DNA of 64,000 bases from Clostridia bacterium (GTDB lineage: Bacteria; Bacillota; Clostridia; UMGS1883; UMGS1540): contig JAZSIR010000001.1 in the NCBI GenBank assembly GCA_045533905.1, forward strand, positions 7,617 to 71,616, read 5' to 3'. The notes below the pieces were generated by a model. That model did not search any database. It saw only the letters and a program-made list of their open reading frames with translations, and was not told the DNA's origin. Made by a program: the position numbers and the translations under genes. This document shows positions 2,110 to 19,051 of the stretch, piece by piece. Position 1 is the first letter of the stretch, and each line of letters begins with the position of its first letter.

Positions 2110-3197
2110 TTAAGATAAATCACTTAAAGAAAGAATATGCAAATGTTACTCCCTTAAAGGATGTAAATGTTCATATTCATAAGGGCGATGTCATTTCTAT
2201 TATTGGTCCTTCAGGCACCGGTAAATCAACCCTTATCAGATGTATCAATATGCTTGAAACTCCCACTTCCGGCGATATTTTCGTTAACGGTGAACGAATT
2301 ACCGACAAAAAATGTAACATAAACAAAATCCGTCAGAAGATGGGTATGGTGTTCCAATCCTTCAATTTGTTTAACCACATGAACATTATTGAAAACATTA
2401 TGGCAGCACCTATGGACTTACTTAAAAAATCAAAGCAGGATGCTTATGACGACGGTATGGAGCTTCTTCGCACAGTTGGTCTTGCAGATAAAGCCTTTAA
2501 CTATCCCGATGAGCTTTCAGGCGGTCAGAAACAGCGTGTTGCCATAGCAAGAGCACTCGCAATGGAACCCGAAATAATACTCCTTGATGAGCCGACATCG
2601 GCGCTCGATCCCACAATGGTCGGTGAAGTTCAGGCGGTAATTAAAGACCTTGCAAAAAAAGGCTTAACTTTAATGATAGTAACTCACGAAATGCGATTTG
2701 CAAGAGAAATTGCAAACAGAGTTTTCTATATGGATGAAGGCGGTGTTTATGAAGACGGAACACCTGAAGAAATCTTCGATAATCCAAAGCGAGAAAAGAC
2801 AATCAGATTTATTAAGCACCTTAAAGTATTTGAAAATCTTATCACCTCAAAGGATTTCGACTTTATAGGCTTTAATACATCTTTAGAAGAATTCGGCAGA
2901 CGAAATCAGGTTCCGCAGGAAACCATTTACCGCGCACAGTCGGTATTTGAAGAACTTGTTGTGCAATGTCTTCTTCCAAAGCTTGAGGAAGAGTTTACTC
3001 TAAGTATTGCCTTTGAATATTCTCAAGATGAAGAAACACTTTCGATGATTATGAAATATGACGGAGAACATTTCGATGTACGAAATACACCTAATGTTAT
3101 TTCGTTTGCTATTGCTGAAAATGCATCAGAAAGCATTGATTATACTGAGTGTAACGACGGTAATTTTACAAACCTCGTGACGGTGAAAATCAAATAA
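2106..3197 (+). CDS. Amino-acid ABC transporter ATP-binding protein (GlnQ-like) with an extra C-terminal domain of about 120 aa
   Basis: Walker A GPSGTGKST, signature LSGGQKQRVAIARAL, Walker B ILLDEPTSALD, H-loop VTHEM. ATGA overlap with the upstream permease. Residues about 241-363 lie beyond a normal NBD. Confidence 0.9.
   Translation: MIKINHLKKEYANVTPLKDVNVHIHKGDVISIIGPSGTGKSTLIRCINMLETPTSGDIFVNGERITDKKCNINKIRQKMGMVFQSFNLFNHMNIIENIMAAPMDLLKKSKQDAYDDGMELLRTVGLADKAFNYPDELSGGQKQRVAIARALAMEPEIILLDEPTSALDPTMVGEVQAVIKDLAKKGLTLMIVTHEMRFAREIANRVFYMDEGGVYEDGTPEEIFDNPKREKTIRFIKHLKVFENLITSKDFDFIGFNTSLEEFGRRNQVPQETIYRAQSVFEELVVQCLLPKLEEEFTLSIAFEYSQDEETLSMIMKYDGEHFDVRNTPNVISFAIAENASESIDYTECNDGNFTNLVTVKIK
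2826..3194 (+). other. RsbW/SpoIIAB-like (GHKL-fold) pseudo-kinase module fused to ABC ATPase 1
   Basis: Hand alignment to the stand-alone kinase at 13992-14402: QSVFEELVVQC vs IDIAIDELFGNI. FTLSIAFEYSQDEETLSMIMKYDGEHFDV vs ATVRVEVTEDPLAVVITFIDNGVPYDP. IDYTECNDGNFTNLVTVKIK vs IAYEYKDGHNILKIKK. It lacks the N-box Asn and the GGLG box. Confidence 0.5.
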
Positions 3198-3209
3198 CGA
3201 GGTGATAAA

Positions 3210-3563
3210 TTGGAACAGTATAATTTTTCAAACAGCAATATTGACCTTGCCTGTGAGGATGTTGGCGTTTTTCTGACATCGGTCGGAGTGGAAAAACGCG
3301 AAGTTTTGCGAAACAAACTCACCCTTGAGGAAATACTCCTTGAATACCAAGCAAAGTTTGGTGAAGAAGCGAACTTTAAGGTAAGATGCGTAAACCGCTT
3401 TATGACCATCAAGGTTGAGTTAATTGTTTCGGGACGGGTTTACAATCCGCTTGAAAAGAACGAGGAAGAAAACATCATACATGGAATTTTGGCAGGTATC
3501 GGTCTTGCCCCCTCATACGGATACAGAAACGGAAAGAATTATATCATTTTCACTCCCAAGAAA
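3210..3563 (+). other. RsbW-like pseudo-kinase module at the N-terminus of symporter 1
   Basis: NIDLACEDVGVFLTSV / KLTLEEILLEY / FKVRCVNRFMTIKVELIVSGRVYNPLEK / YGYRNGKNYIIF are collinear with NIETVTDFVNEQLEAF / IDIAIDELFGNI / ATVRVEVTEDPLAVVITFIDNGVPYDPLAK / YEYKDGHNILKI of the kinase at 13992-14402. Confidence 0.5.
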
Positions 3564-4781
3564 AAACCGTTGTCAAGCACGGTTAAAATGGGTGTGGCGA
3601 TTGGACTTTCGCTCATTTGCGGTTTTTTCCTTAATCTTCTGCCCGATTCAGTTAGAGCAGGTGCAAGCAAATATGTACTTTCGCCTGTGACCGATGCGTT
3701 TATGGGATTGATTTCGGCTGTATCGATTCCGCTGATTTTCTTGTCTGTCCTTGGTAGCATCTGCTCTATGGGCAACATGGAAACTCTCGGCAAAATTGGA
3801 AAAAAGACCATTAAAACTATTCTCCTGTATTTGACGGCGTTCAGTATACTTATGACAGCACTTGGAAGCTTGTTCTTTCACGTACAGTGGGGTGGCGGAG
3901 GAGCATCAGGTTTCTCACAGGTTTTCGATTTGATTTATAACATCATTCCATCGAATATGTTTGAACCTTTTATAACGGGAAATACTCTGCAGCTTATCTT
4001 CATTTCCATTATAGTTGGACTTGCAATGCTTGTCCTTTCGACAAGAGTGAACGGTGTTTTCAAACTTGTCGAACAGTTGGGCGCGATTGTGCAAACAATT
4101 ATGTCAGGACTTTCATCTATGCTGCCGATTTTGATTTTTGTACTCTTTACGGGAATGATATCCGGCGGAGAGTTCGGAACTCTGCTTGATTCTTGGAAGA
4201 TTATTGCAGTTTTCCTGTTGCTCGTTATGGTTTACTATGCAACAACTGTTTTGTACATTGCATTTAATAAAAAAATTTCGCCGGCTTTGCTATTAAAAAA
4301 GACATGGAAGACGCTTATTATTGCTCTTACAACTGCATCTTCTGCTGCGGCATTCCAAAAAAATATTCGCGATTCAAACAAAAAGTTTGGTATTGACAAA
4401 CGTCTCGCGGAATTTGGGGCATCCTTGGGACAAGTGTTGTTCAGCCCTGCTGATGTTGCTATTCTCATTGCAATGGAGGTTGGGTTTGCGGAAATGTATG
4501 GCATTGCGATCACTCCGCAGTTTTTAATCATTGCGTTGATCACGAACCTACTTTTGTCATTTTCCATTCCTCCCGTACCCGGAGGCTCTGTGATGGGATA
4601 CACTATTGCATTCACACAGCTTGGTATTCCTTTGGAGGTTATGGGTGTTGTTCTTGCCTTGGATGCGATCATTGATTTTCCGGCAACAGCGTGCAACATT
4701 TCGGGATGGCAGCTTACAATGATTGAGGTTGCTGACTCGCTCGATATGCTCGATAAAGAAACACTTTGCAAAAAGAGATGA
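3210..4781 (+). CDS. Dicarboxylate/amino-acid:cation symporter (DAACS/SDF family), paralog 1, with an extra N-terminal soluble domain
   Basis: TTG start 6 nt after GAGGTG. Multiple hydrophobic segments. SDF-type motifs TTASSAAAF, PPVPGGSVMGYT, DAIIDFPATACNISG. The first ~118 aa are non-membrane. Confidence 0.85.
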   Translation: MEQYNFSNSNIDLACEDVGVFLTSVGVEKREVLRNKLTLEEILLEYQAKFGEEANFKVRCVNRFMTIKVELIVSGRVYNPLEKNEEENIIHGILAGIGLAPSYGYRNGKNYIIFTPKKKPLSSTVKMGVAIGLSLICGFFLNLLPDSVRAGASKYVLSPVTDAFMGLISAVSIPLIFLSVLGSICSMGNMETLGKIGKKTIKTILLYLTAFSILMTALGSLFFHVQWGGGGASGFSQVFDLIYNIIPSNMFEPFITGNTLQLIFISIIVGLAMLVLSTRVNGVFKLVEQLGAIVQTIMSGLSSMLPILIFVLFTGMISGGEFGTLLDSWKIIAVFLLLVMVYYATTVLYIAFNKKISPALLLKKTWKTLIIALTTASSAAAFQKNIRDSNKKFGIDKRLAEFGASLGQVLFSPADVAILIAMEVGFAEMYGIAITPQFLIIALITNLLLSFSIPPVPGGSVMGYTIAFTQLGIPLEVMGVVLALDAIIDFPATACNISGWQLTMIEVADSLDMLDKETLCKKR

Positions 4782-4790
4782 GGTGGTTAA

Positions 4791-5144
4791 TTGGAACAGT
4801 ATAATTTTTCAAACAGCAATATTGACCTTGCCTGTGAAGAAGTCGGTGAGTTTCTTTCCAAAGTCGGTGTAGAACGACGCGAGGCTCTCCGAACAAAGCT
4901 CACATTTGAGGAAGTATTGCTTGAATACCAATCCAAGTTCGGAGAGGAAGCCACCTTCAAGGTGAGACTTCTGAAACGCTTGTCCTCTATAAAGGTCGAG
5001 ATCATCGTAGAAGGAGAATCCTACAACGCTCTTGTCAAAAACAGCGACGAGGGTGACGTGATACAAGGTCTGCTTGCAGGTATCGGTCTTGCTCCTACTT
5101 GGAATTACAAGAACGGTAAAAATTACATCGTATTTATACCAAAG
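4791..5144 (+). other. RsbW-like pseudo-kinase module at the N-terminus of symporter 2
   Basis: Same block structure as 3210-3563: NIDLACEEVGEFLSKV, KLTFEEVLLEY, FKVRLLKRLSSIKVEIIVEGESYNALVK, WNYKNGKNYIVF. Confidence 0.5.
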
Positions 5145-6365
5145 AAAAAACCGCTGTCCGGCACGGCCAAAATGGTCGGTGCAATCGGACTTGCGGTGAT
5201 TTGCGGAATTATCTTAAATCTCTTGCCAGACGGAATCAGAGCAGGCGCAAACGATTATGTGCTAACACCCGTAACGAATGCGTTTGTGGGACTTATCTCA
5301 GCAGTATCAGGGCCGCTGATCTTCCTATCGGTTCTCGGCAGTATCTGCTCCATGGGCAATATGGAAACCCTCGGCAAGATCGGAAGTAAGACGATTAAGG
5401 TTATCCTTCTTTATATGACGGTAATCGCAGTATTGATGACCGCATTCGGCTGCCTGTTTTATCACATTGAAATGGGTGGCGGAGGGACATCGAGCTTCTC
5501 GCAGATTCTCGATTTGATCTATGACATCATTCCGTCAAATCTGTTTGAACCCTTTGTAACCGGAAATGCTTTGCAGCTGATCTTCATTTCCATCATGGTC
5601 GGACTTGCAATGCTTGTCCTATCGTCGAGAGTCAGTGGCGTGTTCAAGCTCGTGGAACAGCTCAGCTCCATCGTGCAAACGATTATGTCGGGGCTGTCCT
5701 CAATGCTTCCGATTCTGATATTTGTTCTCTTTACGGGAATGATTTCAAGCGGTAACCTTGGTGCAATTCTCGATTCTTGGAAGATGATATTAGTCATCGT
5801 GCTAATGATTGTAGTTTACTACGTACTGAATCTTCTGCGAATCTCCCTTATGAAAAAGATACCGCCGGCTTTGCTGATGAAGAAAGCGTGGCAGACACTT
5901 CTCATTGCACTTACCACCGCATCCTCGGCTGCCGCGTTCGGTACGAACACCCGTGATGCAAACAAAAAGCTTGGTATTGACAAAAAGCTTGTTGAGTTCG
6001 CAACTCCCATCGGTCAGGTATTGTTTATGCCCGGATATGTCGCCATGCTTTTTTGTATGGAAATGGGCTTTGCGGAATCCTACGGTCTTCCGATTACTCT
6101 ACCGTGGATATTTATCGCTCTTATCACAAATCTTTTGTTATCATTTGCAGTCCCGCCCGTGCCCGGTGGTGCAATGATGGGATTTACGATTGCTTTTACA
6201 CAACTCGGCATTCCTATGGAGGTTATGGGTATTGCGTTGGCGGTGAACGCTATCATTGATTTCCCCTGTACAGCCTGCAATGTTTCAGGATGGCAGCTTA
6301 CTCTTATTGATGTTGCTGACTCACTTAATATGTTGGATAAAGAATCATTACATAAAAATAATTAA
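4791..6365 (+). CDS. DAACS/SDF-family symporter, paralog 2 (tandem duplicate of 3210-4781), with the same N-terminal extra domain
   Basis: Collinear with paralog 1 over its full length. Same TTG start context. Motifs TTASSAAAF, PPVPGGAMMGFT, NAIIDFPCTACNVSG. Confidence 0.85.
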   Translation: MEQYNFSNSNIDLACEEVGEFLSKVGVERREALRTKLTFEEVLLEYQSKFGEEATFKVRLLKRLSSIKVEIIVEGESYNALVKNSDEGDVIQGLLAGIGLAPTWNYKNGKNYIVFIPKKKPLSGTAKMVGAIGLAVICGIILNLLPDGIRAGANDYVLTPVTNAFVGLISAVSGPLIFLSVLGSICSMGNMETLGKIGSKTIKVILLYMTVIAVLMTAFGCLFYHIEMGGGGTSSFSQILDLIYDIIPSNLFEPFVTGNALQLIFISIMVGLAMLVLSSRVSGVFKLVEQLSSIVQTIMSGLSSMLPILIFVLFTGMISSGNLGAILDSWKMILVIVLMIVVYYVLNLLRISLMKKIPPALLMKKAWQTLLIALTTASSAAAFGTNTRDANKKLGIDKKLVEFATPIGQVLFMPGYVAMLFCMEMGFAESYGLPITLPWIFIALITNLLLSFAVPPVPGGAMMGFTIAFTQLGIPMEVMGIALAVNAIIDFPCTACNVSGWQLTLIDVADSLNMLDKESLHKNN

Positions 6366-6384
6366 AAGAAAGAGGTAGATTACT

Positions 6385-6681
6385 ATGACTATCGAAAAAA
6401 ACTTAAACGGAACCGAACTGACAGTTGCCATTGTTGGCAGACTTGACACAACAACCGCACCTGAACTTGAAGCATCTTTAAAAGAAAGCTTTACTGGTGT
6501 AGAAAAACTTGTGCTTGATTTTGCTTCACTTGAGTATCTTTCTTCTGCAGGACTTCGTGTTCTTCTGGCGGCTCAGAAGGCAATGAACAAGCAGGGCGAA
6601 ATGATTATTAAGAATGTAAACGAAACCATCAATGAAATCTTTGAAGTAACGGGATTTATTGATATTTTGACAATCGAATAA
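6385..6681 (+). CDS. STAS-domain anti-sigma-factor antagonist (SpoIIAA/RsbV-like), copy 1
   Basis: 98 aa of typical STAS length. Phospho-serine loop LEYLSSAGLRVLL. RBS AGAGG 9 nt upstream. Confidence 0.85.
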   Translation: MTIEKNLNGTELTVAIVGRLDTTTAPELEASLKESFTGVEKLVLDFASLEYLSSAGLRVLLAAQKAMNKQGEMIIKNVNETINEIFEVTGFIDILTIE

Positions 6682-6701
6682 TTGCTTAGGGAGGGCTTTG
6701 T

Positions 6702-7595
6702 ATGCCGAATTACGATTTTTTGCTTGAGCATAAGCTGAAGGAACTGAATAGTGAGTTTGCATATCGGCATACCTGCTGTATGTCACTTTTTGAGCAAATG
6801 CTGAAAAGGTTTCTCGCCGTATTCCCAACATTTACCGATCATACACTCCTACATACTTTGAGTGTGACAAACATATCAAACCAACTGCTTCGTGAAAATG
6901 TTATGAAATTAAATGCAAGCGAGATATACATATATCTTATGGCGTGTGCTTTGCATGATATTGGAATGGGTGTTTCGGACAAGGACATTGGCTCATTTAT
7001 TGATGCATCCGGTCTCAGAGGATATGTAAACGAACATCCTGAAATATCTAAGCCTAATTTGATACGCAAATTTCACAACGATTTTTCAGCACAGTTTGTA
7101 AAAAAGTATTGGGAGATACTTGAGATACCAAATAAGCGGTATGCTGATGCGATTGCTGAGGTCGGACGAGGGCACAGAAAGACGGATTTGATGGATGAAG
7201 CACTTTATCCTACAGATTACGAACTTGGTGACGGAAGCAAAGCGAATCTTGCCTTGCTTGCGGCACTTATACGACTTTGCGATGAGCTTGATATAGCATC
7301 GGACAGAAACCCTGATTTGCTGTATGATACCGAAACTATGGAGGGTATGAGCGAGAAGGATGTATTTGAGTTTTCCAAGCACGAGGCTATCCATACGCTA
7401 AAGTTTAGTGAGGATAATATTGTGGTTATTGCTGACACAGATAAACCGGATATTGCCGATGGAGTTATAGAGGCGATCCGTACTGTTAAAGAAACTCTTG
7501 AATATTGTCTTTCTGTAATCAGCAAACGTAGTGATTTTCAAATTGATTGCGAAACAATAAAACTGATATTAAATGATAAAGAAGTAGAGGTGTAA
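6702..7595 (+). CDS. HD-domain metal-dependent phosphohydrolase
   Basis: H...HD...D ligand pattern (DHTLLHTL, CALHDIGM, RLCDELD). No further family assignment is possible by eye. Confidence 0.65.
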   Translation: MPNYDFLLEHKLKELNSEFAYRHTCCMSLFEQMLKRFLAVFPTFTDHTLLHTLSVTNISNQLLRENVMKLNASEIYIYLMACALHDIGMGVSDKDIGSFIDASGLRGYVNEHPEISKPNLIRKFHNDFSAQFVKKYWEILEIPNKRYADAIAEVGRGHRKTDLMDEALYPTDYELGDGSKANLALLAALIRLCDELDIASDRNPDLLYDTETMEGMSEKDVFEFSKHEAIHTLKFSEDNIVVIADTDKPDIADGVIEAIRTVKETLEYCLSVISKRSDFQIDCETIKLILNDKEVEV

Positions 7596-7599
7596 AAAT

Positions 7600-8313
7600 A
7601 TGGCAACTGCACATATAAATGCAAAACCGGAGGATTTCGCAAAAACGGTGCTTATGCCCGGCGATCCTCTCCGCGCAAAGCTGATCGCGGAAAAATATCT
7701 TGAAAACGCTGTACTTGTAAATAATGTCAGAGGCGTTCAGGGCTATACGGGTACATATAAGGGCAAACGAGTGTCCGTTATGGCGAGTGGTATGGGAATG
7801 CCGTCAATGGGTATTTATTCTTATGAGCTTTACAAGTTTTTCGGAGTAGAAAACATTATTCGTATTGGTTCAGCAGGTGCTCTTAATACCGATATTTATG
7901 TTCGTGATGTTGTAATCGGTATGGGTTGTTCTACTGATTCCAATTTTGCGGCAAATTACAAGCTTCCCGGAACTTTTGCTCCACTTTGCAGCTACAAACT
8001 GATGGACGCTTGTGTTGAAAGTGCAAAAGAAATGGGTGTAACATATCACGTGGGCAACCTTCTTTCGTCAGATATTTTCTATGGTGATGACGAAACGGCA
8101 AACGACGCCTGGGCAAAGATGGGTGTTATGGCAATAGAGATGGAGGGTGCGGCACTTTATATGAATGCTGCGCGTCTTGGCAAAAACGCCCTTGTTATTT
8201 GTACCGTATCCAATCACATAATCACGGGCGAGGAAACTACTGCTGAGGAAAGACAGAATTCCTTTGGTGAAATGATTACATTGGCACTTGAAACCGCCTT
8301 GAAGTTAGACTGA
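7600..8313 (+). CDS. deoD: Purine nucleoside phosphorylase, DeoD type
   Basis: 237 aa. N-terminus HINAKPEDFAKTVLMPGDPLRAK, plus RIGSAGAL and AIEMEGAALY, all characteristic of hexameric PNP. Confidence 0.9.
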   Translation: MATAHINAKPEDFAKTVLMPGDPLRAKLIAEKYLENAVLVNNVRGVQGYTGTYKGKRVSVMASGMGMPSMGIYSYELYKFFGVENIIRIGSAGALNTDIYVRDVVIGMGCSTDSNFAANYKLPGTFAPLCSYKLMDACVESAKEMGVTYHVGNLLSSDIFYGDDETANDAWAKMGVMAIEMEGAALYMNAARLGKNALVICTVSNHIITGEETTAEERQNSFGEMITLALETALKLD

Positions 8314-8327
8314 CGGAGGGGGTACTG

Positions 8328-8966
8328 ATGGTAGAAATATTGAAGGGACTTGGCATCACCGTTTTTCTGACTGTTGCATGCTTTATAACAGCATCCTTGA
8401 TTGGAGCATTAACTTGTGCCGGCTTTTGCTCTAAAAACAAAATAGTCAGAACGGTATGCAAGATTTATAATGGCTTGGTGATTAAGATTCCTCCGCTCGT
8501 TATGTTAATGCTTTTCGCATTAGTCGTTATGGGCGACCGTAATAAAGGAACTATATTTATTGCTTTTGTAGGACTGTCTCTTTTTGTTGCAGCAAATCTT
8601 ACCGGTGTTTTCTGTGGCGGTGTTTTTTCCGTTGCAAATGGAGAAATTGAAGCGGCTCGCACGTTGGGAATGAACAAGATTCAAACATTTTTTCATGTTA
8701 TGTTACCTCAGATAATTGAAAACATTGTTCCGGTATATATGTCAATGTTTGTGATGTGTATGCAGATTACAAGTGTGGCATCCGTTATTGGAGTAGGTGA
8801 ATTTCTTAGCGTAACCGATGGTATTTCCGATGCTGTAATTGGAATTGTGATTTCGATTTCAGGTTATTTTGTTATTGGAACACTCGGTGATTTCGTTATC
8901 ACCCGTATAGGAAAGATAAAACATATTAAAGCAAAGGATTATCCTGGAAAGGCGGAGGTGAGATAA
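8328..8966 (+). CDS. Amino-acid ABC transporter permease (no adjacent binding protein)
   Basis: 212 aa, hydrophobic, with EAA loop EIEAARTLGMNKIQTFFHVMLPQ. Immediately followed by an ATPase gene. Confidence 0.8.
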   Translation: MVEILKGLGITVFLTVACFITASLIGALTCAGFCSKNKIVRTVCKIYNGLVIKIPPLVMLMLFALVVMGDRNKGTIFIAFVGLSLFVAANLTGVFCGGVFSVANGEIEAARTLGMNKIQTFFHVMLPQIIENIVPVYMSMFVMCMQITSVASVIGVGEFLSVTDGISDAVIGIVISISGYFVIGTLGDFVITRIGKIKHIKAKDYPGKAEVR

Positions 8967-8967
8967 G

Positions 8968-10059
8968 ATGAGTCTTGTAGAAATAAAAAATCTTACCAAG
9001 CGTTTCGGAGATAATCTTATTTGGGAGAATGTCAACGAATCTATCGAAAAAGGCGATGTGATAGTTATTGTCGGTAACTCGGGTTGCGGAAAGACAACTT
9101 TCCTTCGGTGTATCAATATGCTTGAAACACCTTCATCCGGTCAGATTTTCATTGATGGTGATGAAATAACTGCAGTCGGTGCTGATATTGATAAAATTCG
9201 CAGTAAAATGGGTATGGTGTATCAGAATTTCAATTTGTTCTCACATCTTACTGTACTTGAAAACATTATTAAGGCACCAATGGTGGTTAATAAGATTCCC
9301 AAGGAGCAGGCAATCAAGGAAGGTATGGAATATCTTCGTATGGTAGGTATGCAAGAGAAAGCAGATTTTATGCCCGATCAGCTTTCGGGCGGACAGAAAC
9401 AGCGTGTGGCAATTGCCCGTTGTCTTGCTATGAAGCCTGAAATCATTCTGTTTGACGAACCGACAAGCGCACTTGATCCTACAATGGTGGATGAGGTTCT
9501 TGCGGTTATTAGAAATCTTGCTAAGAGTGGGTTCACTTGTGTAATTGTAACCCACGAAATGGCATTTGCTAAAAGTGTGGCAAGTAAAATCATCTTCTTT
9601 GCTGACAGAGGAATTTATGAGGAGGCACCGCCTGTTGAGTTTTTTGAGCATCCCAAAAGAGAAAAAACAGTTGCCTTTGTTCGCAAACTCAAGACCTATA
9701 CCTACGAGTCTGAGGTTTGCAATATCGATCTTTATACACTTTTAGTTCAGGTCAACAATTATTGTAGTAAATATGCATTTCCGCTTAAATCTGCAAACCG
9801 TTTTCAATTAGTAGTGGAAGAACTTTTAACCTGTTTGCAAAGTATTGGCGGAGATGGCGAGATGAACTTGACTGTGGCGTATGAAGATACCACAGGCAAA
9901 AAAGAAATTATTTTGCGCGAAAAAGTGTGTAAGGGAAATATACTTGATGCGGAGCAGATGGACGAACTGAGTCTGATGCTTATTAAGAACTGTGCATCCG
10001 ATATTAAGCACTGCGTTGAAAACGGATATAATGTATTAACAATTGAAATAAAAGAATAG
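8968..10059 (+). CDS. Amino-acid ABC transporter ATP-binding protein, paralog 2, with the same extra C-terminal domain
   Basis: Walker A GNSGCGKTT, LSGGQKQRVAIARCL, ILFDEPTSALD, VTHEM. 363 aa, the same length as 2106-3197. Confidence 0.9.
   Translation: MSLVEIKNLTKRFGDNLIWENVNESIEKGDVIVIVGNSGCGKTTFLRCINMLETPSSGQIFIDGDEITAVGADIDKIRSKMGMVYQNFNLFSHLTVLENIIKAPMVVNKIPKEQAIKEGMEYLRMVGMQEKADFMPDQLSGGQKQRVAIARCLAMKPEIILFDEPTSALDPTMVDEVLAVIRNLAKSGFTCVIVTHEMAFAKSVASKIIFFADRGIYEEAPPVEFFEHPKREKTVAFVRKLKTYTYESEVCNIDLYTLLVQVNNYCSKYAFPLKSANRFQLVVEELLTCLQSIGGDGEMNLTVAYEDTTGKKEIILREKVCKGNILDAEQMDELSLMLIKNCASDIKHCVENGYNVLTIEIKE
9688..10056 (+). other. RsbW-like pseudo-kinase module fused to ABC ATPase 2
   Basis: NIDLYTLLVQVNNYCS / QLVVEELLTCL / MNLTVAYEDTTGKKEIILREK / IKHCVENGYNVLTIEIK are collinear with the kinase at 13992-14402. 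No N-box Asn and no GxGxG box. Confidence 0.5.
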
Positions 10060-10082
10060 AATTTTCGGCAAGTGAGGTTTTT

Positions 10083-11771
10083 ATGAAACGATTGTTGTAT
10101 GGCGGTACGGTTGTTAATGTGTTCACAGGCGAGCTTGAGCAAACGAACGTGCTGATAGAAAAAGATAAAATTGTAGGTGTTGGTGCATATTCTCCCGATG
10201 ATGCGGATATGACCGAGGATATTACAGGAAAGTACATATGCCCCGGATTTATTGACGGTCATATTCACATTGAAAGCACGATGTTGACACCCTCAGAGCT
10301 TGCAAGACTGTGTATGCCTCACGGAACTACCGCAATCGTTGCCGATCCTCACGAGATTGCCAATGTATGCGGTATGGATGGCATCAAATATATGATGGAA
10401 GCAAGTAGCGGTATCCCTCTCTCGGTTTATTTTACATTGCCTTCCTGCGTTCCCGCAACACCGTTTGATGAATCGGGTGCGGTGCTTGAGGCGGACGATA
10501 TCAGACCACTGTACGAAAACAAGCGAGTTGTAGGACTTGCCGAAATGATGAACTATCCCGGAGTTCTCCTTGGAACGAGCGATGTGTATAACAAAATCGG
10601 TGATGCAATAGAACACGGAAAAGTCATTGATGGCCACGCCCCCTTCTTGTCAGGAAAAGAACTTGATAAATACATTTGTGCAGGTATTACGAGTGACCAC
10701 GAGTGCTCGGATGTGGGTGAAGCGATAGAAAAAATCAGAAAAGGTCAATGGGTGATGATTCGCCAAGGAACGGCTGCTCGTAACCTTGCAGAGCTATTGC
10801 CATTGTTTGATGATGCTTATAGCCATAGATGCGTTCTTGTCACCGATGACCGTCATCCCGCAGACCTTATAAGAGACGGACATATTGATAATATCATCCG
10901 TCTTGCCGCCCGAGGCGGGAAATCAGTTATTACGGCAATTAAAATGGCTACGATACAGGCAGCTCAGTGCTTCGGTTTGCGATTCGTTGGGGCTGTTGCT
11001 CCCGGTTACCGTGCAGATCTTCTTGTACTAAACGACCTTAATGCAGTTGATATTGAAGACGTTTATTCAAAGGGAGAAAAGGTTGTAGAGCGAGGGCAAA
11101 TGAAAGCGTTTGACCGTCCCAAAATTGACGGGGGGTTGTGCGAAACAGTACATAACTCGTTCCATACAAAAGAATTGACGATTGCTGATTTTCACATTGA
11201 AGAAAATAGCAACAAATGTCGAGTGATAGAGATTATTCCCGGTCAGCTTCTCACGGGGGAACAAGTGTGTGAGATTGATTGGAGCAAGAGGAACGGCATT
11301 GACACCACGAGAGACATTCTTAAACTCGCGGTTATTGAAAGACACAAAAACACAGGTCATATTGGACTTGGCTTTATTAAGGGTATTGGAATAAAAAATG
11401 GTGCTATTGCATCCTCCGTATCTCACGATTCACACAATATTATTGTGATTGGCTCAAATGACGAGAATATGGTGATTGCCGCAAATAACATCCGTAAGAA
11501 TGGTGGTAATGTAGTTGTTTCTGCCGGAAAGATTATTGCCGACATGGCATTGCCGATAGCAGGTCTTATGACCAATCTTTCAGGCGAGGAAATTGCCCTT
11601 GCCAATGAAAATGTACGCAAAGCCGTGTATGAGCTTGGCGTGTCGAGGAATATCGAACCTTTTATGAATATGGCGTTTGTGAGTCTGCCTGTAATTCCGT
11701 CACTCAAAATGACGACGCAGGGGCTTGTGAACGTAGATAAACAAGAAAGAATATCGCTTTACTGCGATTAA
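10083..11771 (+). CDS. ade: Adenine deaminase
   Basis: 562 aa. Amidohydrolase HxH motif in GFIDGHIHIESTMLTP. Length and layout match the adenine deaminase family. Confidence 0.85.
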   Translation: MKRLLYGGTVVNVFTGELEQTNVLIEKDKIVGVGAYSPDDADMTEDITGKYICPGFIDGHIHIESTMLTPSELARLCMPHGTTAIVADPHEIANVCGMDGIKYMMEASSGIPLSVYFTLPSCVPATPFDESGAVLEADDIRPLYENKRVVGLAEMMNYPGVLLGTSDVYNKIGDAIEHGKVIDGHAPFLSGKELDKYICAGITSDHECSDVGEAIEKIRKGQWVMIRQGTAARNLAELLPLFDDAYSHRCVLVTDDRHPADLIRDGHIDNIIRLAARGGKSVITAIKMATIQAAQCFGLRFVGAVAPGYRADLLVLNDLNAVDIEDVYSKGEKVVERGQMKAFDRPKIDGGLCETVHNSFHTKELTIADFHIEENSNKCRVIEIIPGQLLTGEQVCEIDWSKRNGIDTTRDILKLAVIERHKNTGHIGLGFIKGIGIKNGAIASSVSHDSHNIIVIGSNDENMVIAANNIRKNGGNVVVSAGKIIADMALPIAGLMTNLSGEEIALANENVRKAVYELGVSRNIEPFMNMAFVSLPVIPSLKMTTQGLVNVDKQERISLYCD

Positions 11772-11804
11772 AAATAATAATAATTTAGAAAGAGGTAATT
11801 TATA

Positions 11805-12101
11805 ATGACTATCGAAAAGAACTTAAGCGGTACAGAACTTAATGTAAAGGTGTCAGGCAGACTTGACACAACAACCGCACCGGAACTTGAAGCAGAAGTT
11901 ATGGGCGCAATCTCAGGTGTAACAAAACTTGTACTTAACTTTGAAGCACTTGAGTACCTTTCATCTGCAGGACTCAGAGTACTGCTTCAGGTACAAAAGA
12001 TAATGAACAAGCAGGGTGAGATGATTATTAAGAACGTAAACGAAACAATCAATGAGATTTTTGAAGTAACAGGATTCATTGATATTCTGACGATTGAATA
12101 A
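11805..12101 (+). CDS. STAS-domain anti-sigma-factor antagonist, copy 2
   Basis: 98 aa paralog of 6385-6681. Same LEYLSSAGLRVLL loop. The last 32 aa are identical to copy 1. Confidence 0.85.
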   Translation: MTIEKNLSGTELNVKVSGRLDTTTAPELEAEVMGAISGVTKLVLNFEALEYLSSAGLRVLLQVQKIMNKQGEMIIKNVNETINEIFEVTGFIDILTIE

Positions 12102-12144
12102 GGTGAACTCCAATGAACCAAACAAGTATTGGAGGGATATACCT

Positions 12145-13995
12145 ATGAAACCAAAAAAGCAAACAAGCATTTCCTACAACTTCCTAAAATGGCTCTTATT
12201 CTTGATGCTCGTCGCCTTTATTGCCACAACCGTGTTCCTGTGGGTATTCCAAACACGACTCGCAAACAACAATGCCGACAATCTCTTGCGGTTGAACATC
12301 ACTGATGTCAAGGCAGACATAAAAGACGCCACCAACGACCATATGCTTGAGATCGTTCGCAACATATCGGCAGAGCTTGACGATATAGATGCAGATACCG
12401 CATCAGAAGAAGAAATGAGTGCACGAATTGCGGAAATGCTCACACGGTACGATGTAACGGAGATTGATATTATCAACAGTAAAGGTATCATCGTGGCGTG
12501 TAATATCGAATCTTTCGTCGGCTTCGATATGGCATCGGGCGAGCAATCCAAAGAGTTCTTGGTGTTGCTCGAAGGCGAAAAGGAAATGGTGCAGGAATTT
12601 CAAGCTCAGTCCTATGACAGCTCCATTGAGCGTAAGTATGCAGGCGCATCGCTTACAAACGGCGGTCTTGTGCAGATTGGTTATGACTACGCGCATTTGC
12701 AGGCGAGCGTTGACCACGAGGTTGTTTCGCTCACCCGTAACCGTCACGTGGGCAACAACGGACGAGTTCTGATTGTTGACCAAGATAAAAACATTGTCAG
12801 CAATGTCAAAGGAATTGACCGTAAAAAACTTGATTTAGAAGCGTTCGGAATAAAACCCGGCTCTGTTCAATCAGGACAACGTGTTACCGCAAACGTAGAG
12901 GGTGTTGATTTCTACTGTATGGCAGAAATGGCCGAAGGCTACTACATTATATCCGCAATACCGGTTAAAGAAGTAACCATCACACGAAATATGGTTGTCA
13001 TTATGGCAGTTGCGGTTGAAATGCTGATATTTATTGCCCTGACGCTTCTTGTCTATCTTTTGATAAAGAAACAGATCGTCGTCAGCGTGAACCGTATCAA
13101 CCATTCGCTATCGGAGATCACAAACGGAAACCTTGATGTTACGATGGACGTGCGTAACAATTTGGAATTTGACTCACTTTCCAACGACATCAACGCAACG
13201 GTAGATACTTTGAAGCGGTACATCAAGGATGCAGAAGAACGCATCGACGCAGAGCTTGCCTTTGCAAAAGCCATTCAGCACTCGGCGTTGCCGTCTGTAT
13301 TCCCGCCTTATCCGAATAGAAAAGAGTTCGAGATCTTCGCCACGATGCACACGGCAAAAGAGGTTGGCGGTGATTTCTACGATTTCTATTTTGTAGACGA
13401 AGATAACCTTGCGTTCTTGATAGCAGACGTATCCGGCAAGGGTGTCCCTGCGGCAATGTTTATGATGCAATCCAAGACCATCATCAAGAGCTGTGCCGAG
13501 TCGGGCATGAGCGTTGAGCAGGTATTCACCGTTGCCAACGAAAAGCTCTGCGAGGGCAATGATGCAGGTATGTTCGTTACCGCCTGGATGGGTATTCTGA
13601 ATACCAAAACCGGCAAGGTACTCTTTGCCAATGCCGGACATAACCCGCCTCTTGTCAAACACGCAGACGGTACATACGAATATCTCAAATCCCGTGCAGG
13701 TTTTGTGCTTGCAGGTATGGAGGGTGTTCGCTACCGCAAGAATGAAGTTGAGCTTGCACCCGGTGATGCGATTTATCTCTACACCGACGGTGTTACCGAA
13801 GCAACCGATCTGAACACCGAGCTTTACGGAGAAGATCGTCTGCATATCGTTCTTGAAAAATACAAAGATGCAGCACCGCAAGTGATCTGTGATGAAGTCA
13901 AAAAGGATGTAGACGCCTTCGTCGGGGAAGCTCCGCAGTTTGATGACATTACAATGCTTGCGCTGAAATACTACGGGAAGGAGGATGCACAATGA
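12145..13995 (+). CDS. Membrane sensor PP2C/SpoIIE-family serine phosphatase (RsbU-like): TM, extracytoplasmic domain, TM, HAMP-like linker, PP2C
   Basis: ATG at 12145 lies 8 nt after GGAGGG; the track ORF starts earlier at a TTG. Two TM segments flank about 270 aa. PP2C motifs GGDFYDF, ADVSGKGVPAA, TDGVTEA, FDDITML. Confidence 0.85.
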   Translation: MKPKKQTSISYNFLKWLLFLMLVAFIATTVFLWVFQTRLANNNADNLLRLNITDVKADIKDATNDHMLEIVRNISAELDDIDADTASEEEMSARIAEMLTRYDVTEIDIINSKGIIVACNIESFVGFDMASGEQSKEFLVLLEGEKEMVQEFQAQSYDSSIERKYAGASLTNGGLVQIGYDYAHLQASVDHEVVSLTRNRHVGNNGRVLIVDQDKNIVSNVKGIDRKKLDLEAFGIKPGSVQSGQRVTANVEGVDFYCMAEMAEGYYIISAIPVKEVTITRNMVVIMAVAVEMLIFIALTLLVYLLIKKQIVVSVNRINHSLSEITNGNLDVTMDVRNNLEFDSLSNDINATVDTLKRYIKDAEERIDAELAFAKAIQHSALPSVFPPYPNRKEFEIFATMHTAKEVGGDFYDFYFVDEDNLAFLIADVSGKGVPAAMFMMQSKTIIKSCAESGMSVEQVFTVANEKLCEGNDAGMFVTAWMGILNTKTGKVLFANAGHNPPLVKHADGTYEYLKSRAGFVLAGMEGVRYRKNEVELAPGDAIYLYTDGVTEATDLNTELYGEDRLHIVLEKYKDAAPQVICDEVKKDVDAFVGEAPQFDDITMLALKYYGKEDAQ

Positions 13996-14402
13996 AAGAA
14001 CTAACCATTGCCGCAACAGTAGAAAACATTGAAACTGTAACGGACTTCGTAAACGAACAGCTTGAAGCGTTTGATTGCCCTATGAAAGCACAGATGCAGA
14101 TCGACATTGCCATCGACGAGCTTTTCGGCAACATTGCGCACTATGCGTACAATCCCGATGTAGGAGAAGCGACCGTTCGCGTGGAGGTTACCGAAGATCC
14201 TCTTGCCGTGGTAATCACCTTTATTGATAACGGCGTACCTTACGATCCTCTTGCAAAAGCCGAGCCCGACACAACGCTTTCCGCAGAGGAAAGAGACATC
14301 GGTGGTCTTGGCATCTATATGGTGAAGAAGTCTATGGACGACATTGCCTATGAATACAAAGACGGACACAACATTTTGAAAATCAAGAAGAATTTGAATT
14401 AA
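13992..14402 (+). CDS. Anti-sigma regulatory factor-type Ser/Thr kinase (RsbW/SpoIIAB-like, GHKL ATPase)
   Basis: 136 aa. N-box DELFGNIAHY, G1-like IDNGVPYDP, G2 GGLGIYMV. ATGA overlap with the phosphatase gene. Confidence 0.8.
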   Translation: MKELTIAATVENIETVTDFVNEQLEAFDCPMKAQMQIDIAIDELFGNIAHYAYNPDVGEATVRVEVTEDPLAVVITFIDNGVPYDPLAKAEPDTTLSAEERDIGGLGIYMVKKSMDDIAYEYKDGHNILKIKKNLN

Positions 14403-14415
14403 AGGATTATTGCAA

Positions 14416-16602
14416 ATGAAGAACTTAAACAAAAAACTTTTGACCTTCGGTATAGTTTTGTGTATGCTTCTCTCGTGTTTTTCGGGAGTGGTATTTGCAA
14501 AGGATATCGAAACAATCGTTATTCTTTATGAAAACGATGTTCATTGTGCAGTAGAGGGTTATTCTAAACTTGCAGCAATGAAAAATGAATTATCAGAAGA
14601 TTATGAATATGTAGGCGTTGTATCCTCCGGCGACTTTGTTCAGGGCGGAACTCTTGGTGCAGTTTCTCGTGGTGAATACATAGTAAGCCTTATGAACCTT
14701 GTGGGATATGATGCCGTAACACTTGGTAATCACGAATTTGATTATAAGCTCCCACGCCTTGATGAACTTGCAGAATTGATGAACACCGAACCTATCTCTT
14801 GTAACTTTCAAAAGATAGGTGAAACTGAATCATATTTTGAGCCGTATTCCATCGTAACCTACGGTGATGTGGATATAGCATATATCGGTATCACAACACC
14901 ATCTACATTGTCCTCATCGTCACCTGCACAGTTTAAGGGTGAAAATGGTGAGTATATTTACACATTCAATGTAGATACCCTTTACGATGTGGTACAGGCA
15001 AGTATTGATTCTGCAAAGGAAGATGGTGCTGATTACATAATCGCCCTTTCTCATATTGGATATGAAGAAGATGAGCAGTATGAGGATGTTGTTGACTTAA
15101 TTGAAAACACATACGGATTTGATGTTGTTCTTGATGCTCATTCTCACTCTGTTATTGAAAATATGAAGCTGACCGATGAGGGCGGAAATGAGGTTGTTCT
15201 TACCTCAACAGGCACAAAGTTTGAAAATATCGGCAAGCTTACAATTTCAGGCGGTGAGATAACAACAGAGCTTATAGAAACTGAGAACTACACAAACACA
15301 GATACAACCGTTGATGCAAAACTTGCGGAAATAAACGAAGCATATTCTGCTCTCGGTAATCGCAAGATTGGTGAAAGCGAAATAGAGCTTATCACGAACG
15401 ATGCGGACGGAAACCGCCTTGTTAGGACAACAGAAACCAATCTCGGCAATTTGTGTGCAGATGCAATTAAAACAGTAACGAAAGCTGATATTGCCTATGT
15501 AAACGGCGGCGGAATCCGTGCACCGATTGAAATTGGCGAAGTATCGTTCAATGACATTTTTAGTGTTTTTCCATTTAACAATCAGATTGTTGTAGCAGAA
15601 ATGACAGGTCAGAAAATACGCGATATGCTTGAAATGTCACTTATGAATTATCCGGCAGAAGATGGCTCTTTCCCTCATGTTGCAGGACTAACATTTTCGG
15701 TTAATAAATCCATTCCAACATCTGTTAAAACAGACGAAAACACAGTTTTTACAGGCGTTGACGGTGAGTATAGAGTTTATGATATTAAAGTATTAAATGA
15801 AGACACAGGCGAATACGAGCCTATTAAACTCGACGGAACATACTCCTTTGCAAGCTTCAACTACTTTGTTTTAGACCAAGGCGGCGGTATGAGTATGTTT
15901 GACGGTGTAAAAATATTAAAGAATGACGGAATGCTTGATGTTGAAGCGTTAGAAACATACATCACAGAAAACCTTGGCGGTGTTATCGGCGAAGAATATG
16001 CAGAGGTAGATAACAGAATCAACTTTACAGACGGTGAAGATGCACTTAATAAGTTCACCGATTTGTCCGATGATGCTTGGTATAGTGATTCTGCAAAGTA
16101 TGTTTTGGAAAACGGTCTTATGAAAGGCGTAACAGATACCACCTTTGCACCAAACGAAAACTTAACAAGAGCAATGCTTGTTACAGTTCTTTACCGTGCA
16201 GAAAATGAACCTGCCACAAACCGCAGCATTCCTTTCTCTGATGTTGATACGGGTGCTTACTATGCAAGTGCAGTTTCTTGGGCAAAGCAGAACGGTATTG
16301 TAAACGGTGTAACAGAAACAGAATTTGCACCGAATGACAATATCACCCGTGAACAGATTGCGGCAATTATGCACAGATACGCACAGTACAAGGGTTATGA
16401 TGTCAGCGTAGGAGAAAACACAAATATTCTTTCCTATGACGATTTTGACAGCATTTCCGAGTATGCAATAGCTTCTATGCAGTACGCTTGCGGCAGCGGC
16501 TTGATTAAGGGTAAATCAGAAAGCACCCCCAATCCGCTTGATAATGCTACAAGAGCAGAAATAGCAGCAATACTTCACAGATTTATTGAAGTGAATAAGT
16601 AA
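14416..16602 (+). CDS. Secreted 5'-nucleotidase/metallophosphoesterase anchored by three C-terminal SLH domains
   Basis: Signal peptide MKNLNKKLLTFGIVLCMLLSCFSGVVFA. Calcineurin-like motifs GDFVQGG and GNHEFD. C-terminal SLH repeats (FTDLSDDAWY..., FSDVDTGAYY..., FDSISEYA...). Confidence 0.85.
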   Translation: MKNLNKKLLTFGIVLCMLLSCFSGVVFAKDIETIVILYENDVHCAVEGYSKLAAMKNELSEDYEYVGVVSSGDFVQGGTLGAVSRGEYIVSLMNLVGYDAVTLGNHEFDYKLPRLDELAELMNTEPISCNFQKIGETESYFEPYSIVTYGDVDIAYIGITTPSTLSSSSPAQFKGENGEYIYTFNVDTLYDVVQASIDSAKEDGADYIIALSHIGYEEDEQYEDVVDLIENTYGFDVVLDAHSHSVIENMKLTDEGGNEVVLTSTGTKFENIGKLTISGGEITTELIETENYTNTDTTVDAKLAEINEAYSALGNRKIGESEIELITNDADGNRLVRTTETNLGNLCADAIKTVTKADIAYVNGGGIRAPIEIGEVSFNDIFSVFPFNNQIVVAEMTGQKIRDMLEMSLMNYPAEDGSFPHVAGLTFSVNKSIPTSVKTDENTVFTGVDGEYRVYDIKVLNEDTGEYEPIKLDGTYSFASFNYFVLDQGGGMSMFDGVKILKNDGMLDVEALETYITENLGGVIGEEYAEVDNRINFTDGEDALNKFTDLSDDAWYSDSAKYVLENGLMKGVTDTTFAPNENLTRAMLVTVLYRAENEPATNRSIPFSDVDTGAYYASAVSWAKQNGIVNGVTETEFAPNDNITREQIAAIMHRYAQYKGYDVSVGENTNILSYDDFDSISEYAIASMQYACGSGLIKGKSESTPNPLDNATRAEIAAILHRFIEVNK

Positions 16603-16784: not shown

Positions 16785-17339
16785 ATGAAGAAAAAAGTAT
16801 TATGTACGGCATTGGCAGTGACTATGTTGCTAACAACAACTGCATCGGCAACTGCAAAACCTTGGTGGCTCAGTAAATACCGAGTAACTTTCGACAATGA
16901 ACTTGGAATCGTAGGAAATGTAACCTTAACCTTCGCCTCAGACGGCGGTAGCTTTATCAGGCCAATAACCAAAAGATATGGCGAGAGCATCAGTCTTGAA
17001 AGTTATGTACCAACAAAATACGGTTACACATTCAAAGGATGGTTCACAGATCCAAGAACAAAGCAAAATCAGGTAACAACATTCAAATTCACAAAGCCTG
17101 ATGTGCTTTACGCTAAGTGGCAGCCTAACCCACAGGAGCCTATAAATCCGAATGACGAAATCATAGCAAAAGATACCTGCTACCTCACGGACGAAGAAAC
17201 AAAAATACGAAATGAAATTATAGAAGAAAAGAATAAGACATACATCGAAGGCTTCGGTTATGTAGCTCCAAGTAAAACAAAAACAATCATCGTAGACTCA
17301 GGCGGTGATATAAATAAAATGGTCGGCACAATGGAATAA
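16785..17339 (+). CDS. Small secreted protein with one Listeria-Bacteroides-type repeat
   Basis: Signal-like N-terminus MKKKVLCTALAVTMLLTTTASA. Repeat signature YGYTFKGWFTDP. RBS AGGAGA. Confidence 0.6.
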   Translation: MKKKVLCTALAVTMLLTTTASATAKPWWLSKYRVTFDNELGIVGNVTLTFASDGGSFIRPITKRYGESISLESYVPTKYGYTFKGWFTDPRTKQNQVTTFKFTKPDVLYAKWQPNPQEPINPNDEIIAKDTCYLTDEETKIRNEIIEEKNKTYIEGFGYVAPSKTKTIIVDSGGDINKMVGTME

Positions 17340-17355
17340 AAAGAATAACTTAAAT

Positions 17356-17395
17356 GGCGGTATGCTCGAGATTACCTCGAACATACCGCCGTTTT
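17356..17395. terminator. Hairpin terminator between convergent genes
   Basis: GGCGGTATGcTCGAG-attac-CTCGAaCATACCGCC followed by GTTTT. Confidence 0.6.
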
Positions 17396-17400
17396 GTATC

Positions 17401-18507
17401 TTATATTTCTTTCAGTAGCCTGATGGCTTCATCAAGTGAAATTTCTCCGGACTCGCCACGATCTTTAATATCCATAGCCAATGTACTCTGTTCAAGCCAC
17501 TTGGAATAATCCAATCCGCTTGATTTTCGCTTAGCCAATCGATCGTAAGTTCTGTCATATTCTTTTTTTATTGGAGACCTGAATTCATCTGAGTTTTCTT
17601 TTTTGTGAGCACCTACCTTGCTGCATGTCCTGCCTTTCGGATCGTTAGGAGCCACTCTGTTGCAATAGTGGGTATCATGACCTGTTGGCAAAAGAAAAAA
17701 ACGTTTGCAATTATGACATCTTTTCGGTGAGTGTTTAACATTTAATCCTCTGAACAGGTCTGAATTTAAAAAGCCGCCAATAGACCTGAAAATGACTCTT
17801 TCTGCCAATATATAATTTTCTTTGCAATCAGGATCAGGACAAGTGACATATTCAATATTTGCCGGCATTTCTGCTTTAAATGTAATTGCAGGATATTTCG
17901 GGATAAGAGATTCAAGATTTTGCTGTAATTCGCTATTATTCAGAAACTGATATATTGCGTGTGCAAAATGTGCAGGGGTTCTTGCAGTAACATTTTCTAT
18001 ATATAAATCAACAAATGCAGATGCATATATTTTAAAAATCAGTATTTCATCATTGATTGATAACAAGCCTACTAAAATTCTGTTTAATATGCTTCTGCTC
18101 TCGCTTTTGGGATGGGTTTCATATATTTCCCTGAACTCCGATATATATCTTCTTTTATCAAATTCAAAGCGGTCATATAAAGGCAGGCTAAGGATAACAT
18201 CTAATGCCTTGCTTAGATATGGAGCAAAGCCATCAAAACTGCATGATGATATAATCATTAAATTTGATTCGTATTCCCCATATAGTTTTTCTAGAAACGC
18301 TTTCCTTAAATTTGATAATACTGTTTTCAAATTATCAAGCTGTTCGTCAGATAGCTCCAGAATTTCAGTTGAAATCTGACCAAGCGAGACCTTTTCTTTT
18401 CCGATAATGACATAATCTTTATAAAATTGTGCCGTTATATATCCAAAATCAAATGGTTTTTCATCTAAACTTTTTATACTTGCCATATACTCACTTCCAC
18501 GATACAT
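17401..18507 (-). CDS. Hypothetical protein with a C-terminal Cys/His cluster, next to the recombinase module
   Basis: 368-aa ORF; an alternative start MASIKSL is at 18486. Cluster CPDPDC...RCHNCKRFFLLPTGHDTHYCNRV...RTCSKVGAHKK suggests zinc binding. I cannot assign a family with confidence. Confidence 0.5.
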   Translation of the reverse strand: MYRGSEYMASIKSLDEKPFDFGYITAQFYKDYVIIGKEKVSLGQISTEILELSDEQLDNLKTVLSNLRKAFLEKLYGEYESNLMIISSCSFDGFAPYLSKALDVILSLPLYDRFEFDKRRYISEFREIYETHPKSESRSILNRILVGLLSINDEILIFKIYASAFVDLYIENVTARTPAHFAHAIYQFLNNSELQQNLESLIPKYPAITFKAEMPANIEYVTCPDPDCKENYILAERVIFRSIGGFLNSDLFRGLNVKHSPKRCHNCKRFFLLPTGHDTHYCNRVAPNDPKGRTCSKVGAHKKENSDEFRSPIKKEYDRTYDRLAKRKSSGLDYSKWLEQSTLAMDIKDRGESGEISLDEAIRLLKEI

Positions 18508-18549
18508 ATTTTATAATTCCACTACTTTTGAAAATGGCGGCAAAATCGA

Positions 18550-18959: not shown

Positions 18960-19051
18960 TCTTTTAGTTTTTGTTTAATATTTGTCTGGATATATTAAGT
19001 TATTTGTGGTATTGTTGTCTTGAAAAAAATATGGAAAGGAGTGTGAGGCTG

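Follow-up and report, generated by a model that had tools for sequence, protein, structure and literature searches.

A predicted partner-switching module with transporters carrying dead RsbW-like domains as candidate clients in a Clostridia bacterium

The stretch of DNA analysed here (the window, 64,000 nucleotides of contig JAZSIR010000001.1 from a Clostridia bacterium, assembly GCA_045533905.1) opens with an array of 14 co-directional genes (1-16602, + strand) in which two STAS proteins, a membrane PP2C phosphatase and an RsbW-type serine kinase are interleaved with two ATP-binding cassette (ABC) import ATPases and two SDF symporters, each of these four transporter proteins bearing an additional domain that appears to be a dead copy of the kinase. 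The array probably encodes a partner-switching module with transport, not transcription, as its output, in which the phosphorylation state of the STAS proteins would control their docking on the transporter-borne domains. An earlier reading of the letters alone, hereafter the original prediction, had described a 16.6-kb co-directional array holding a partner-switching set with no sigma factor and transporters with pseudo-kinase modules, and every one of these parts was found where it had been placed. In fact, its architectural claims all survived, and the conserved and domain-specific linkage described below supports its interpretation.

By sequence, the module contains the STAS, GHKL serine kinase and SpoIIE-family PP2C components of a partner-switching system, and the sigma factor is the component missing locally. 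The two STAS antagonists, of 98 aa each, lie at 6385-6681 (+) and 11805-12101 (+) and matched the Pfam STAS profile with E values of 1e-15 to 1e-16 (1e-15 for STAS 1 and 2e-15 for STAS 2 in the feature annotation); STAS 1 also scored 71 bits, where 53 is the cut-off, with the NCBIfam model TIGR00377 of the anti-sigma factor antagonist superfamily. The predicted phospho-acceptor, Ser54 of the motif LEYLSSAGL, was aligned with the phosphorylated serines of RsbV (S56) and SpoIIAA (S58). The two proteins share 81% identity, and their genes 86% at the DNA level, with the divergence placed in the N-terminal half. Their last 32 residues are common to both, including the 29-residue stretch KQGEMIIKNVNETINEIFEVTGFIDILTIE, over which the DNA differs synonymously; a recent gene conversion between them was considered and rejected, given the synonymous differences throughout the protein-identical stretch. 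A C-terminus kept identical despite these synonymous changes, together with differing N-terminal halves, fits a common interface for the kinase and phosphatase and different transporter partners for the two proteins.

The phosphatase (12145-13995, +) consists of a first transmembrane segment, a dCache-like outside part, a second transmembrane segment, a HAMP domain and a SpoIIE-type PP2C domain, as assigned by Pfam (SpoIIE/PP2C E 2e-51 over the whole profile, HAMP E 4e-5, dCache_1 weak at E 1e-3) and by hydropathy. The membrane anchoring and the HAMP-like linker that had been predicted were confirmed by these searches; the extracytoplasmic domain, put earlier at ~270 aa, was shortened to ~245 aa between hydrophobic segments at about residues 13-35 and 283-307. 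A GGAGG motif precedes the ATG at 12145, and the nearest NCBIfam model was SiaA, with a score far under its cut-off. The kinase (13992-14402, +, 136 aa; Pfam HATPase_c_2 E 4e-22) is translationally coupled to the phosphatase gene by the ATGA overlap that had been noted, at 13992-13995, and a GGAGG at 13980 lies eight bases upstream. Its best match by sequence among solved structures was RsbW (6m36, E 1e-5), and its motifs are intact, namely the N-box E43 and N47, the G1 box D79-x-G81, the ATP lid and the GGLG of the G2 box at residues 104-107.

The extensions that had been called pseudo-kinase modules exist in all four transporter proteins and have the RsbW fold. The first ABC ATPase, of the GlnQ/TcyN type and 363 aa (2106-3197, +), matches ABC_tran over residues 17-165 only, and its C-terminal RsbW-fold pseudo-kinase domain spans about nucleotides 2814-3194 in a search with a local hidden Markov model (HMM); the second ATPase, also of 363 aa (8968-10059, +), carries the same type of domain at about 9682-10056. 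The SDF (DAACS) symporter of 523 aa (3210-4781, +) bears it at its cytoplasmic N-terminus (about 3210-3569), as does its paralogue of 524 aa (4791-6365, +), in which the Pfam SDF match starts at residue 127 and the domain covers about 4791-5150 (local HMM). The stretches left unassigned by public families amount to ~125 C-terminal residues on the ATPases and ~120 N-terminal residues on the symporters, and the isolated extensions of the window transporters gave no Pfam match up to E 10 and no NCBIfam match. Similarly, the profile of the SDF domain retrieved nothing but noise from the PDB sequences, and BLASTP pointed only weakly from the extensions to the free kinase (E 2e-4). The assignment was provided by structure and profile comparisons. 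AlphaFold models built from deep alignments were confident (pLDDT 92.2 and 91.7), and fold comparison placed the STAS-binding kinases, that is, the anti-sigma-kinase subtype of the Bergerat fold, as the nearest structural relatives of the extensions. Moreover, an HHalign comparison of 31 free kinases with the fused domains of related loci returned 98.35% (ABC), 97.2% (SDF) and 99.5% (MatE transporters), with an E value of 1e-14 against the ABC-borne domains when the ATPase at 2106-3197 was the template and 96-99.5% over all class pairs. Iterated HMMs started from each domain type converged mutually, and one ABC homologue (P0113) has a weak precomputed PF13581 match. The two SDF domains of the window are 71% identical.

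The catalytic motifs were compared in an alignment of 129 kinase and transporter-borne domains from related loci. The free kinases in it conserve the N-box Asn (58 of 59), the G1 Asp-x-Gly, the lid DPDxTLSAEER and the G2 GGLG. That Asn was retained in 5 of 30 ABC-borne, none of 23 SDF-borne and 3 of 13 MatE-borne copies, while no ABC-borne or SDF-borne copy kept the ATP lid and the glycines of G2 had disappeared. Since the N-box Asn, the lid and the G2 glycines are gone, the fused domains are not kinases; judged by their motifs and fold, they are pseudo-kinases sharing the RsbW fold and ancestry. The only residues common to all classes were (D/E)42-E43, P86, Y120, G125 and N127. In SpoIIAB-type kinases the N-box Glu is positioned beside the serine to be phosphorylated; if so, its retention could allow a dead domain to tell serine from phosphoserine. 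Besides the N-box Asn of three copies, the MatE class preserved the G1 Asp in 9 of 13 copies and the final glycine of G2 in 10 of 13, and a minority of MatE fusions (L046, L048, L056, L060 and L062) matched the active-kinase profile best, so some MatE-borne domains may, by these motifs, be active still or be intermediates toward dead domains.

The fusion points are all cytoplasmic, either at the SDF N-terminus ahead of the first transmembrane segment or on the ATPase, which is itself cytoplasmic. A search of representative proteins with the SDF N-terminal domain yielded 930 protein clusters at 50% identity, the SDF domain alone used as a query for homologues retrieved only short metagenome fragments, and ~360-aa ABC ATPases with the C-terminal domain were found in several phyla. 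Some domain-bearing SDF proteins (P0242 and P0278) have ~230 extra N-terminal residues before the dead kinase domain; these had been considered as ABC/SDF hybrids, which was rejected, the additional N-terminus being a region of several transmembrane segments with no ATPase. Public annotation of the carriers reads "dicarboxylate/amino acid:cation symporter" or "amino acid ABC transporter ATP-binding protein" only.

The absence of a sigma factor from the array and the window, as originally predicted, was borne out by two approaches, since no Sigma70 Pfam family matched any of the 46 non-overlapping open reading frames (ORFs) of 90 aa or more in the 64 kb, and an iterated sigma HMM matched no window ORF of at least 50 aa. 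A cognate sigma factor just upstream of the window had been named as one finding that would speak against the original prediction; a syntenic contig (L118), whose SDF protein is 89% identical and which reaches 6 kb past the left edge of the window, encodes none in that 6 kb. What lies directly upstream of the array in this relative (L118:3350-5942) is an HTH_26 protein, a LytTR response regulator, a HATPase_c_5 (AgrC-like) kinase and a 79-aa ORF, and in L006 and L016 the SDF genes come after ORFs of comparable length (243 and 431 aa). Transcription of the array may be driven by a quorum-type two-component system.

The association between the module and the domain-bearing transporters was assessed by a scan with the STAS clade, taking one genome per species, which gave 475 loci; the linkage counts refer to the best 80 of these (65-100% identity), annotated with HMMs made from the window proteins and with ORF calling that prioritised profile-matching ORFs. 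All 80 came from gut or rumen Clostridia, comprising Oscillospiraceae, Acutalibacteraceae, Lachnospiraceae (Blautia, Roseburia and Butyrivibrio isolates included) and Christensenella. A PP2C gene was present in 56 loci and a kinase in 59, the two being fused in 26 cases, and a domain-bearing transporter was found in 40 loci, in 29 of which it stood directly beside STAS. For 37 of the 91 STAS genes a same-strand neighbour was a domain-bearing transporter, and a domain-bearing ABC ATPase lay immediately upstream of 10 of the 91. The MatE transporters provided an internal control, since 9 of the 11 with the domain adjoined a module gene versus 1 of the 10 without it. The linkage is therefore conserved across Clostridia families and specific to domain-bearing transporters. 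The carriers comprised SDF, ABC ATPase, MatE and EamA proteins and single-chain proteins of 1130-1394 aa that unite solute-binding protein (SBP), permease and ATPase. Clostridium sp. Marseille-P3244 (L004) also encodes STAS, a domain-bearing MatE, GH3, PP2C and kinase beside a domain-bearing ABC ATPase, and the transporter-module association was also observed in a Deltaproteobacteria metagenome-assembled genome (MAG; L116). The EamA (drug/metabolite transporter, DMT) carrier of the dead domain has 603 aa (L018:8267-10078), and the single polypeptides with SBP repeats, permease, ATPase and dead domain occur among L046, L058, L060, L061, L069, L076 and L079.

Taken as a mechanism, these parts would operate as follows. 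The free kinase (13992-14402) would phosphorylate both STAS proteins at Ser54, and the membrane phosphatase (12145-13995) would dephosphorylate them once a ligand is perceived by its extracellular dCache-like part; judged by the neighbouring genes, an amino acid, a nucleoside or a nucleotide is a plausible ligand. The target of STAS would be a dead kinase paralogue on the cytoplasmic face of a transporter, not an anti-sigma factor holding a sigma factor. The putative clients in the window are the two ABC import ATPases, addressed through their C-termini, and the two SDF symporters, addressed through their N-termini; in relatives, MatE, EamA and single-chain SBP-permease-ATPase proteins would be added. 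STAS, most likely in its unphosphorylated form, would dock on the dead domains and alter transporter activity, so that one sensed signal could set several uptake routes together at the post-translational level. The binding of STAS to the fused domains, its dependence on phosphorylation and its effect on transport are inferred. The term decoy, used originally for these domains, may be wrong, as they resemble output receivers of the switch and not sinks. A broader and more tentative generalisation, for which we regard the case as nearly balanced, is that the shared kinase-derived docking domain could make ABC importers and SDF, MatE and EamA proteins clients of one phospho-switch, forming a post-translational transporter "regulon" in which uptake and efflux are set within seconds without transcription and which would extend to other phyla besides being common among the Clostridia of gut and rumen.

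Several observations weigh against transport as the output of this module. A metagenome scan starting from the SDF domain, based on a 6-sequence alignment, recovered 29 loci with a recurring triplet of SBP-permease, domain-bearing ABC ATPase and domain-bearing SDF, and only ~10 of the 29 had STAS, PP2C or kinase genes, many of the contigs being short; over 8-10 kb, the linkage is thus not obligatory. Domain-bearing ABC ATPases likewise stand in otherwise ordinary amino-acid ABC operons, and no module was found inside 10 kb of them (L002, a Thermotogota MAG designated L115, and L117). Conversely, half of the 80 STAS loci had no detectable domain-bearing transporter, and many of them adjoin C39 ABC exporters; the switch would consequently have further outputs, or its partners would be encoded elsewhere in the genome. 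The stoichiometry is also puzzling, given that SDF carriers are trimers and RsbW-type proteins are dimers. Finally, the window covers just 64 kb of the genome, and a sigma factor may be encoded outside it.

This last point leads to the rival explanation of a canonical anti-sigma module, in which a sigma factor of the SigB/F-like or extracytoplasmic function (ECF) type located elsewhere in the genome would be held by the free kinase and the extensions would merely be regulatory or dimerisation domains descended from RsbW. Besides the limited view of the genome, it is favoured by a kinase that shows every feature of an active RsbW, by the domain-bearing ABC ATPases lacking a module within 10 kb, and by an ECF-like ORF of 185 aa two genes downstream of the kinase in L025 (12284-12841), which was the sole sigma-type gene near the module in the 80 loci. 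Nevertheless, we consider it quite unlikely. No SigF-like ORF was found in 86 loci and no SigB/F-type sigma factor in the 80 related STAS loci, while the 5-6 ECF-like ORFs across these 80 (~1.2 Mb of Clostridia DNA) correspond to about chance level by a rough estimate; the 6 kb upstream in L118 added none. Moreover, a sigma factor elsewhere leaves unexplained why domain-bearing and not domain-free transporters sit in module operons, and the 26 kinase-phosphatase fusions better suit a dedicated pair acting on STAS than a sigma holder.

Two other explanations concern the role of the extensions. If the dead domains heterodimerised with the free kinase or with the PP2C-kinase fusions, they would tether or inhibit the kinase, and STAS would be a competitor or substrate. 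The common fold and beta-sheet core of fused domains and kinases are compatible with such pairing, as are the position of the residues shared by all classes, in the core and C-terminal strands, and the presence in the window of one kinase versus four dead domains. However, on a dimeric ABC ATPase the two fused domains would more naturally pair together, and it is STAS, not the kinase, that most tightly adjoins the domain-bearing transporters, which makes kinase pairing unlikely in our judgement. Alternatively, the extensions could be autonomous sensors of small molecules, mediating for instance trans-inhibition like the C-terminal domains of MetN and MalK, with the STAS neighbourhood reflecting shared physiology only. 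The C-terminal position on the ABC ATPase is that of known regulatory domains, and the domain is widespread on the ~360-aa amino-acid ABC ATPases of several phyla, some with no module nearby. Nonetheless, the only known ligand pocket of the fold, its ATP site, is dismantled (the lid deleted, the Asn and Gly boxes lost), the STAS-binding kinases are the closest structural relatives, and a domain carried by four or five transporter classes that are unrelated, differ in substrate and all lie beside STAS fits this explanation poorly; we regard it as very improbable. Docking of STAS on the transporter-borne domains is the most likely reading.

Among known systems, the array resembles RsbU/RsbV/RsbW-sigmaB and SpoIIE/SpoIIAA/SpoIIAB-sigmaF of Bacillus in having a STAS protein with a phosphorylatable serine, a GHKL kinase with intact boxes and a SpoIIE-family PP2C, encoded by adjacent and coupled genes. 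Unlike those systems, no sigma factor occurs here in the locus, the window or the syntenic relatives, and the predicted partner of STAS is a dead kinase copy on transporters. The array would work most like the partner switches without a sigma factor, such as SiaA/SiaB/SiaC/SiaD of Pseudomonas aeruginosa; SypE/SypA and BtrUVW are further examples. The output of Sia is a diguanylate cyclase without an RsbW-like docking domain, whereas the proposed outputs here are transporters with a kinase-derived receiver domain. Rv1364c of Mycobacterium tuberculosis is a soluble PP2C-RsbW-STAS fusion linked to SigF; in contrast to the transporters of the array, it has no transporter fusion, nor has a dead docking role been described for its kinase domain.

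The action of a STAS protein on an ABC transporter has precedent in MlaFB of Escherichia coli, in which the free STAS protein MlaB regulates the transporter via the ATPase MlaF (PMC7367683). The likeness lies in a STAS protein acting on an ABC ATPase, which here is suggested by gene adjacency; unlike MlaFB, the array appends a separate RsbW-fold domain to the ATPase and encodes a full phospho-switch alongside. To our knowledge, Mla has neither kinase nor phosphatase, and its STAS protein binds directly to the nucleotide-binding domain. The SLC26/SulP transporters carry a fused STAS domain as their cytoplasmic regulatory part (PMC8256260). The array would be the mirror image of this arrangement, since SulP fuses the STAS half and here the kinase-like half is fused, with STAS being free and, by prediction, phosphorylatable. 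No description of transporter-fused RsbW-like domains was found by full-text search and in a review of STAS-only proteins, a survey in which subscription journals were partly covered.

Little is known to us about the post-translational control of bacterial transporters outside inducer exclusion by the phosphotransferase system (PTS), MalK, MetN, OpuA and MlaFB. If the proposed switch is correct, transporter control would be modular, with a dead anti-sigma kinase domain that could be joined to transporters of many kinds and through which a STAS phospho-switch would reach them. It would also give a function to two large unannotated domains, the N-terminal one of SDF proteins and the C-terminal one of ABC ATPases, and would explain the many STAS, PP2C and RsbW genes of gut Clostridia that have no sigma factor nearby. 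Related loci are available in cultured hosts, namely Blautia schinkii DSM 10518, Blautia difficilis, Roseburia intestinalis, Butyrivibrio strains and Clostridium sp. Marseille-P3244.

The remaining genes of the array surround the module with transport and nucleotide functions. It begins with an ABC permease of the polar amino-acid type fused to SBP_bac_3 repeats (1-2109, +; SBP_bac_3 E 2e-66, BPD_transp_1 E 8e-20), whose 5′ end is truncated by the window edge and whose homologue in the syntenic L118 has 985 aa. Between the two STAS genes lie an HD-domain protein of the HD-CE family (6702-7595, +; PF24391 E 1e-34), a protein of the purine/uridine nucleoside phosphorylase (PNP) family (7600-8313, +; PNP_UDP_1 E 6e-42), a 212-aa ABC permease (8328-8966, +; BPD_transp_1 E 6e-13) that precedes the second ATPase, and an adenine deaminase (10083-11771, +; Adenine_deam_C E 6e-58, Amidohydro_1 E 3e-34). 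The last gene encodes a 5′-nucleotidase anchored to the cell wall by SLH domains (14410-16602, +; Metallophos, 5_nucleotid_C and SLH in Pfam). Intergenic gaps do not exceed 43 nt, two gene pairs overlap, a terminator scan of the array gave matches no more frequent than in shuffled sequence, and an Rfam search of the window found no riboswitch or other RNA family. The combination of 5′-nucleotidase, nucleoside phosphorylase, adenine deaminase and HD-domain protein with amino-acid-type importers and SDF carriers suggests that the scavenging of nucleotides, nucleosides and amino acids is the likely physiology of the array. Part of this gene order recurs in relatives: the block of STAS, HD-CE, PNP, permease and ATPase was found in L008 and L021 and is present in L118, STAS also lies upstream of HD-CE in L010, L013 and L018, and L022 begins at HD-CE. 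A 5′-nucleotidase gene stands beside STAS, PP2C or kinase genes in L018, L019, L045, L053, L056, L116 and L118, and this recurrence, which spans several families and a second phylum, hints at a place for nucleotides or nucleosides outside the cell in the physiology of the switch.

Other arrangements of the same components were observed in related loci. STAS was found fused to an APH-type phosphotransferase, sometimes with a terminal intact HATPase_c_2 domain (L019:8199-9392, L043:3373-4980, L046, L059 and L116:13499-15769), and the module has such fusions as recurrent neighbours among Clostridia as well as in the Deltaproteobacteria MAG. The loci with C39 exporters form a second class (L024-L027, L032-L038, L044 and L084; for example, L025:867-8876), in which the STAS clade, PP2C and kinase are accompanied by a TetR regulator, a 157-aa HlyD-like membrane protein, two C39-peptidase ABC exporters and an alkylsulfatase-like protein. 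No dead kinase domain was detected in the C39-exporter loci; the recurrent 157-aa ORF beside the exporters had been considered as a hidden kinase-like or STAS domain, which was rejected, the protein being membrane-anchored and HlyD-like. In a distant group (~40% identity; L098:6777-7241, L101, L103, L105-L108, L111 and L113), an ORF of ~154 aa accompanies the domain-bearing SDF gene and usually follows it directly; by eye, the product looks like a stand-alone cyclic-nucleotide-binding domain.

Regarding the surroundings of the array, the GC content is 0.38-0.46 over position 1 to ~26 kb, the transporter/STAS array included, versus 0.47-0.52 further on. The region beside the array (16785-27566) looks like an integrated mobile element. 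It holds a DUF6076 gene (17401-18507, -), followed by a tandem of three serine-recombinase ORFs (18971-23064), of which the second lacks the catalytic domain, and by a PBECR3/LPD3 polyvalent protein of 1365 aa (23469-27566, -).

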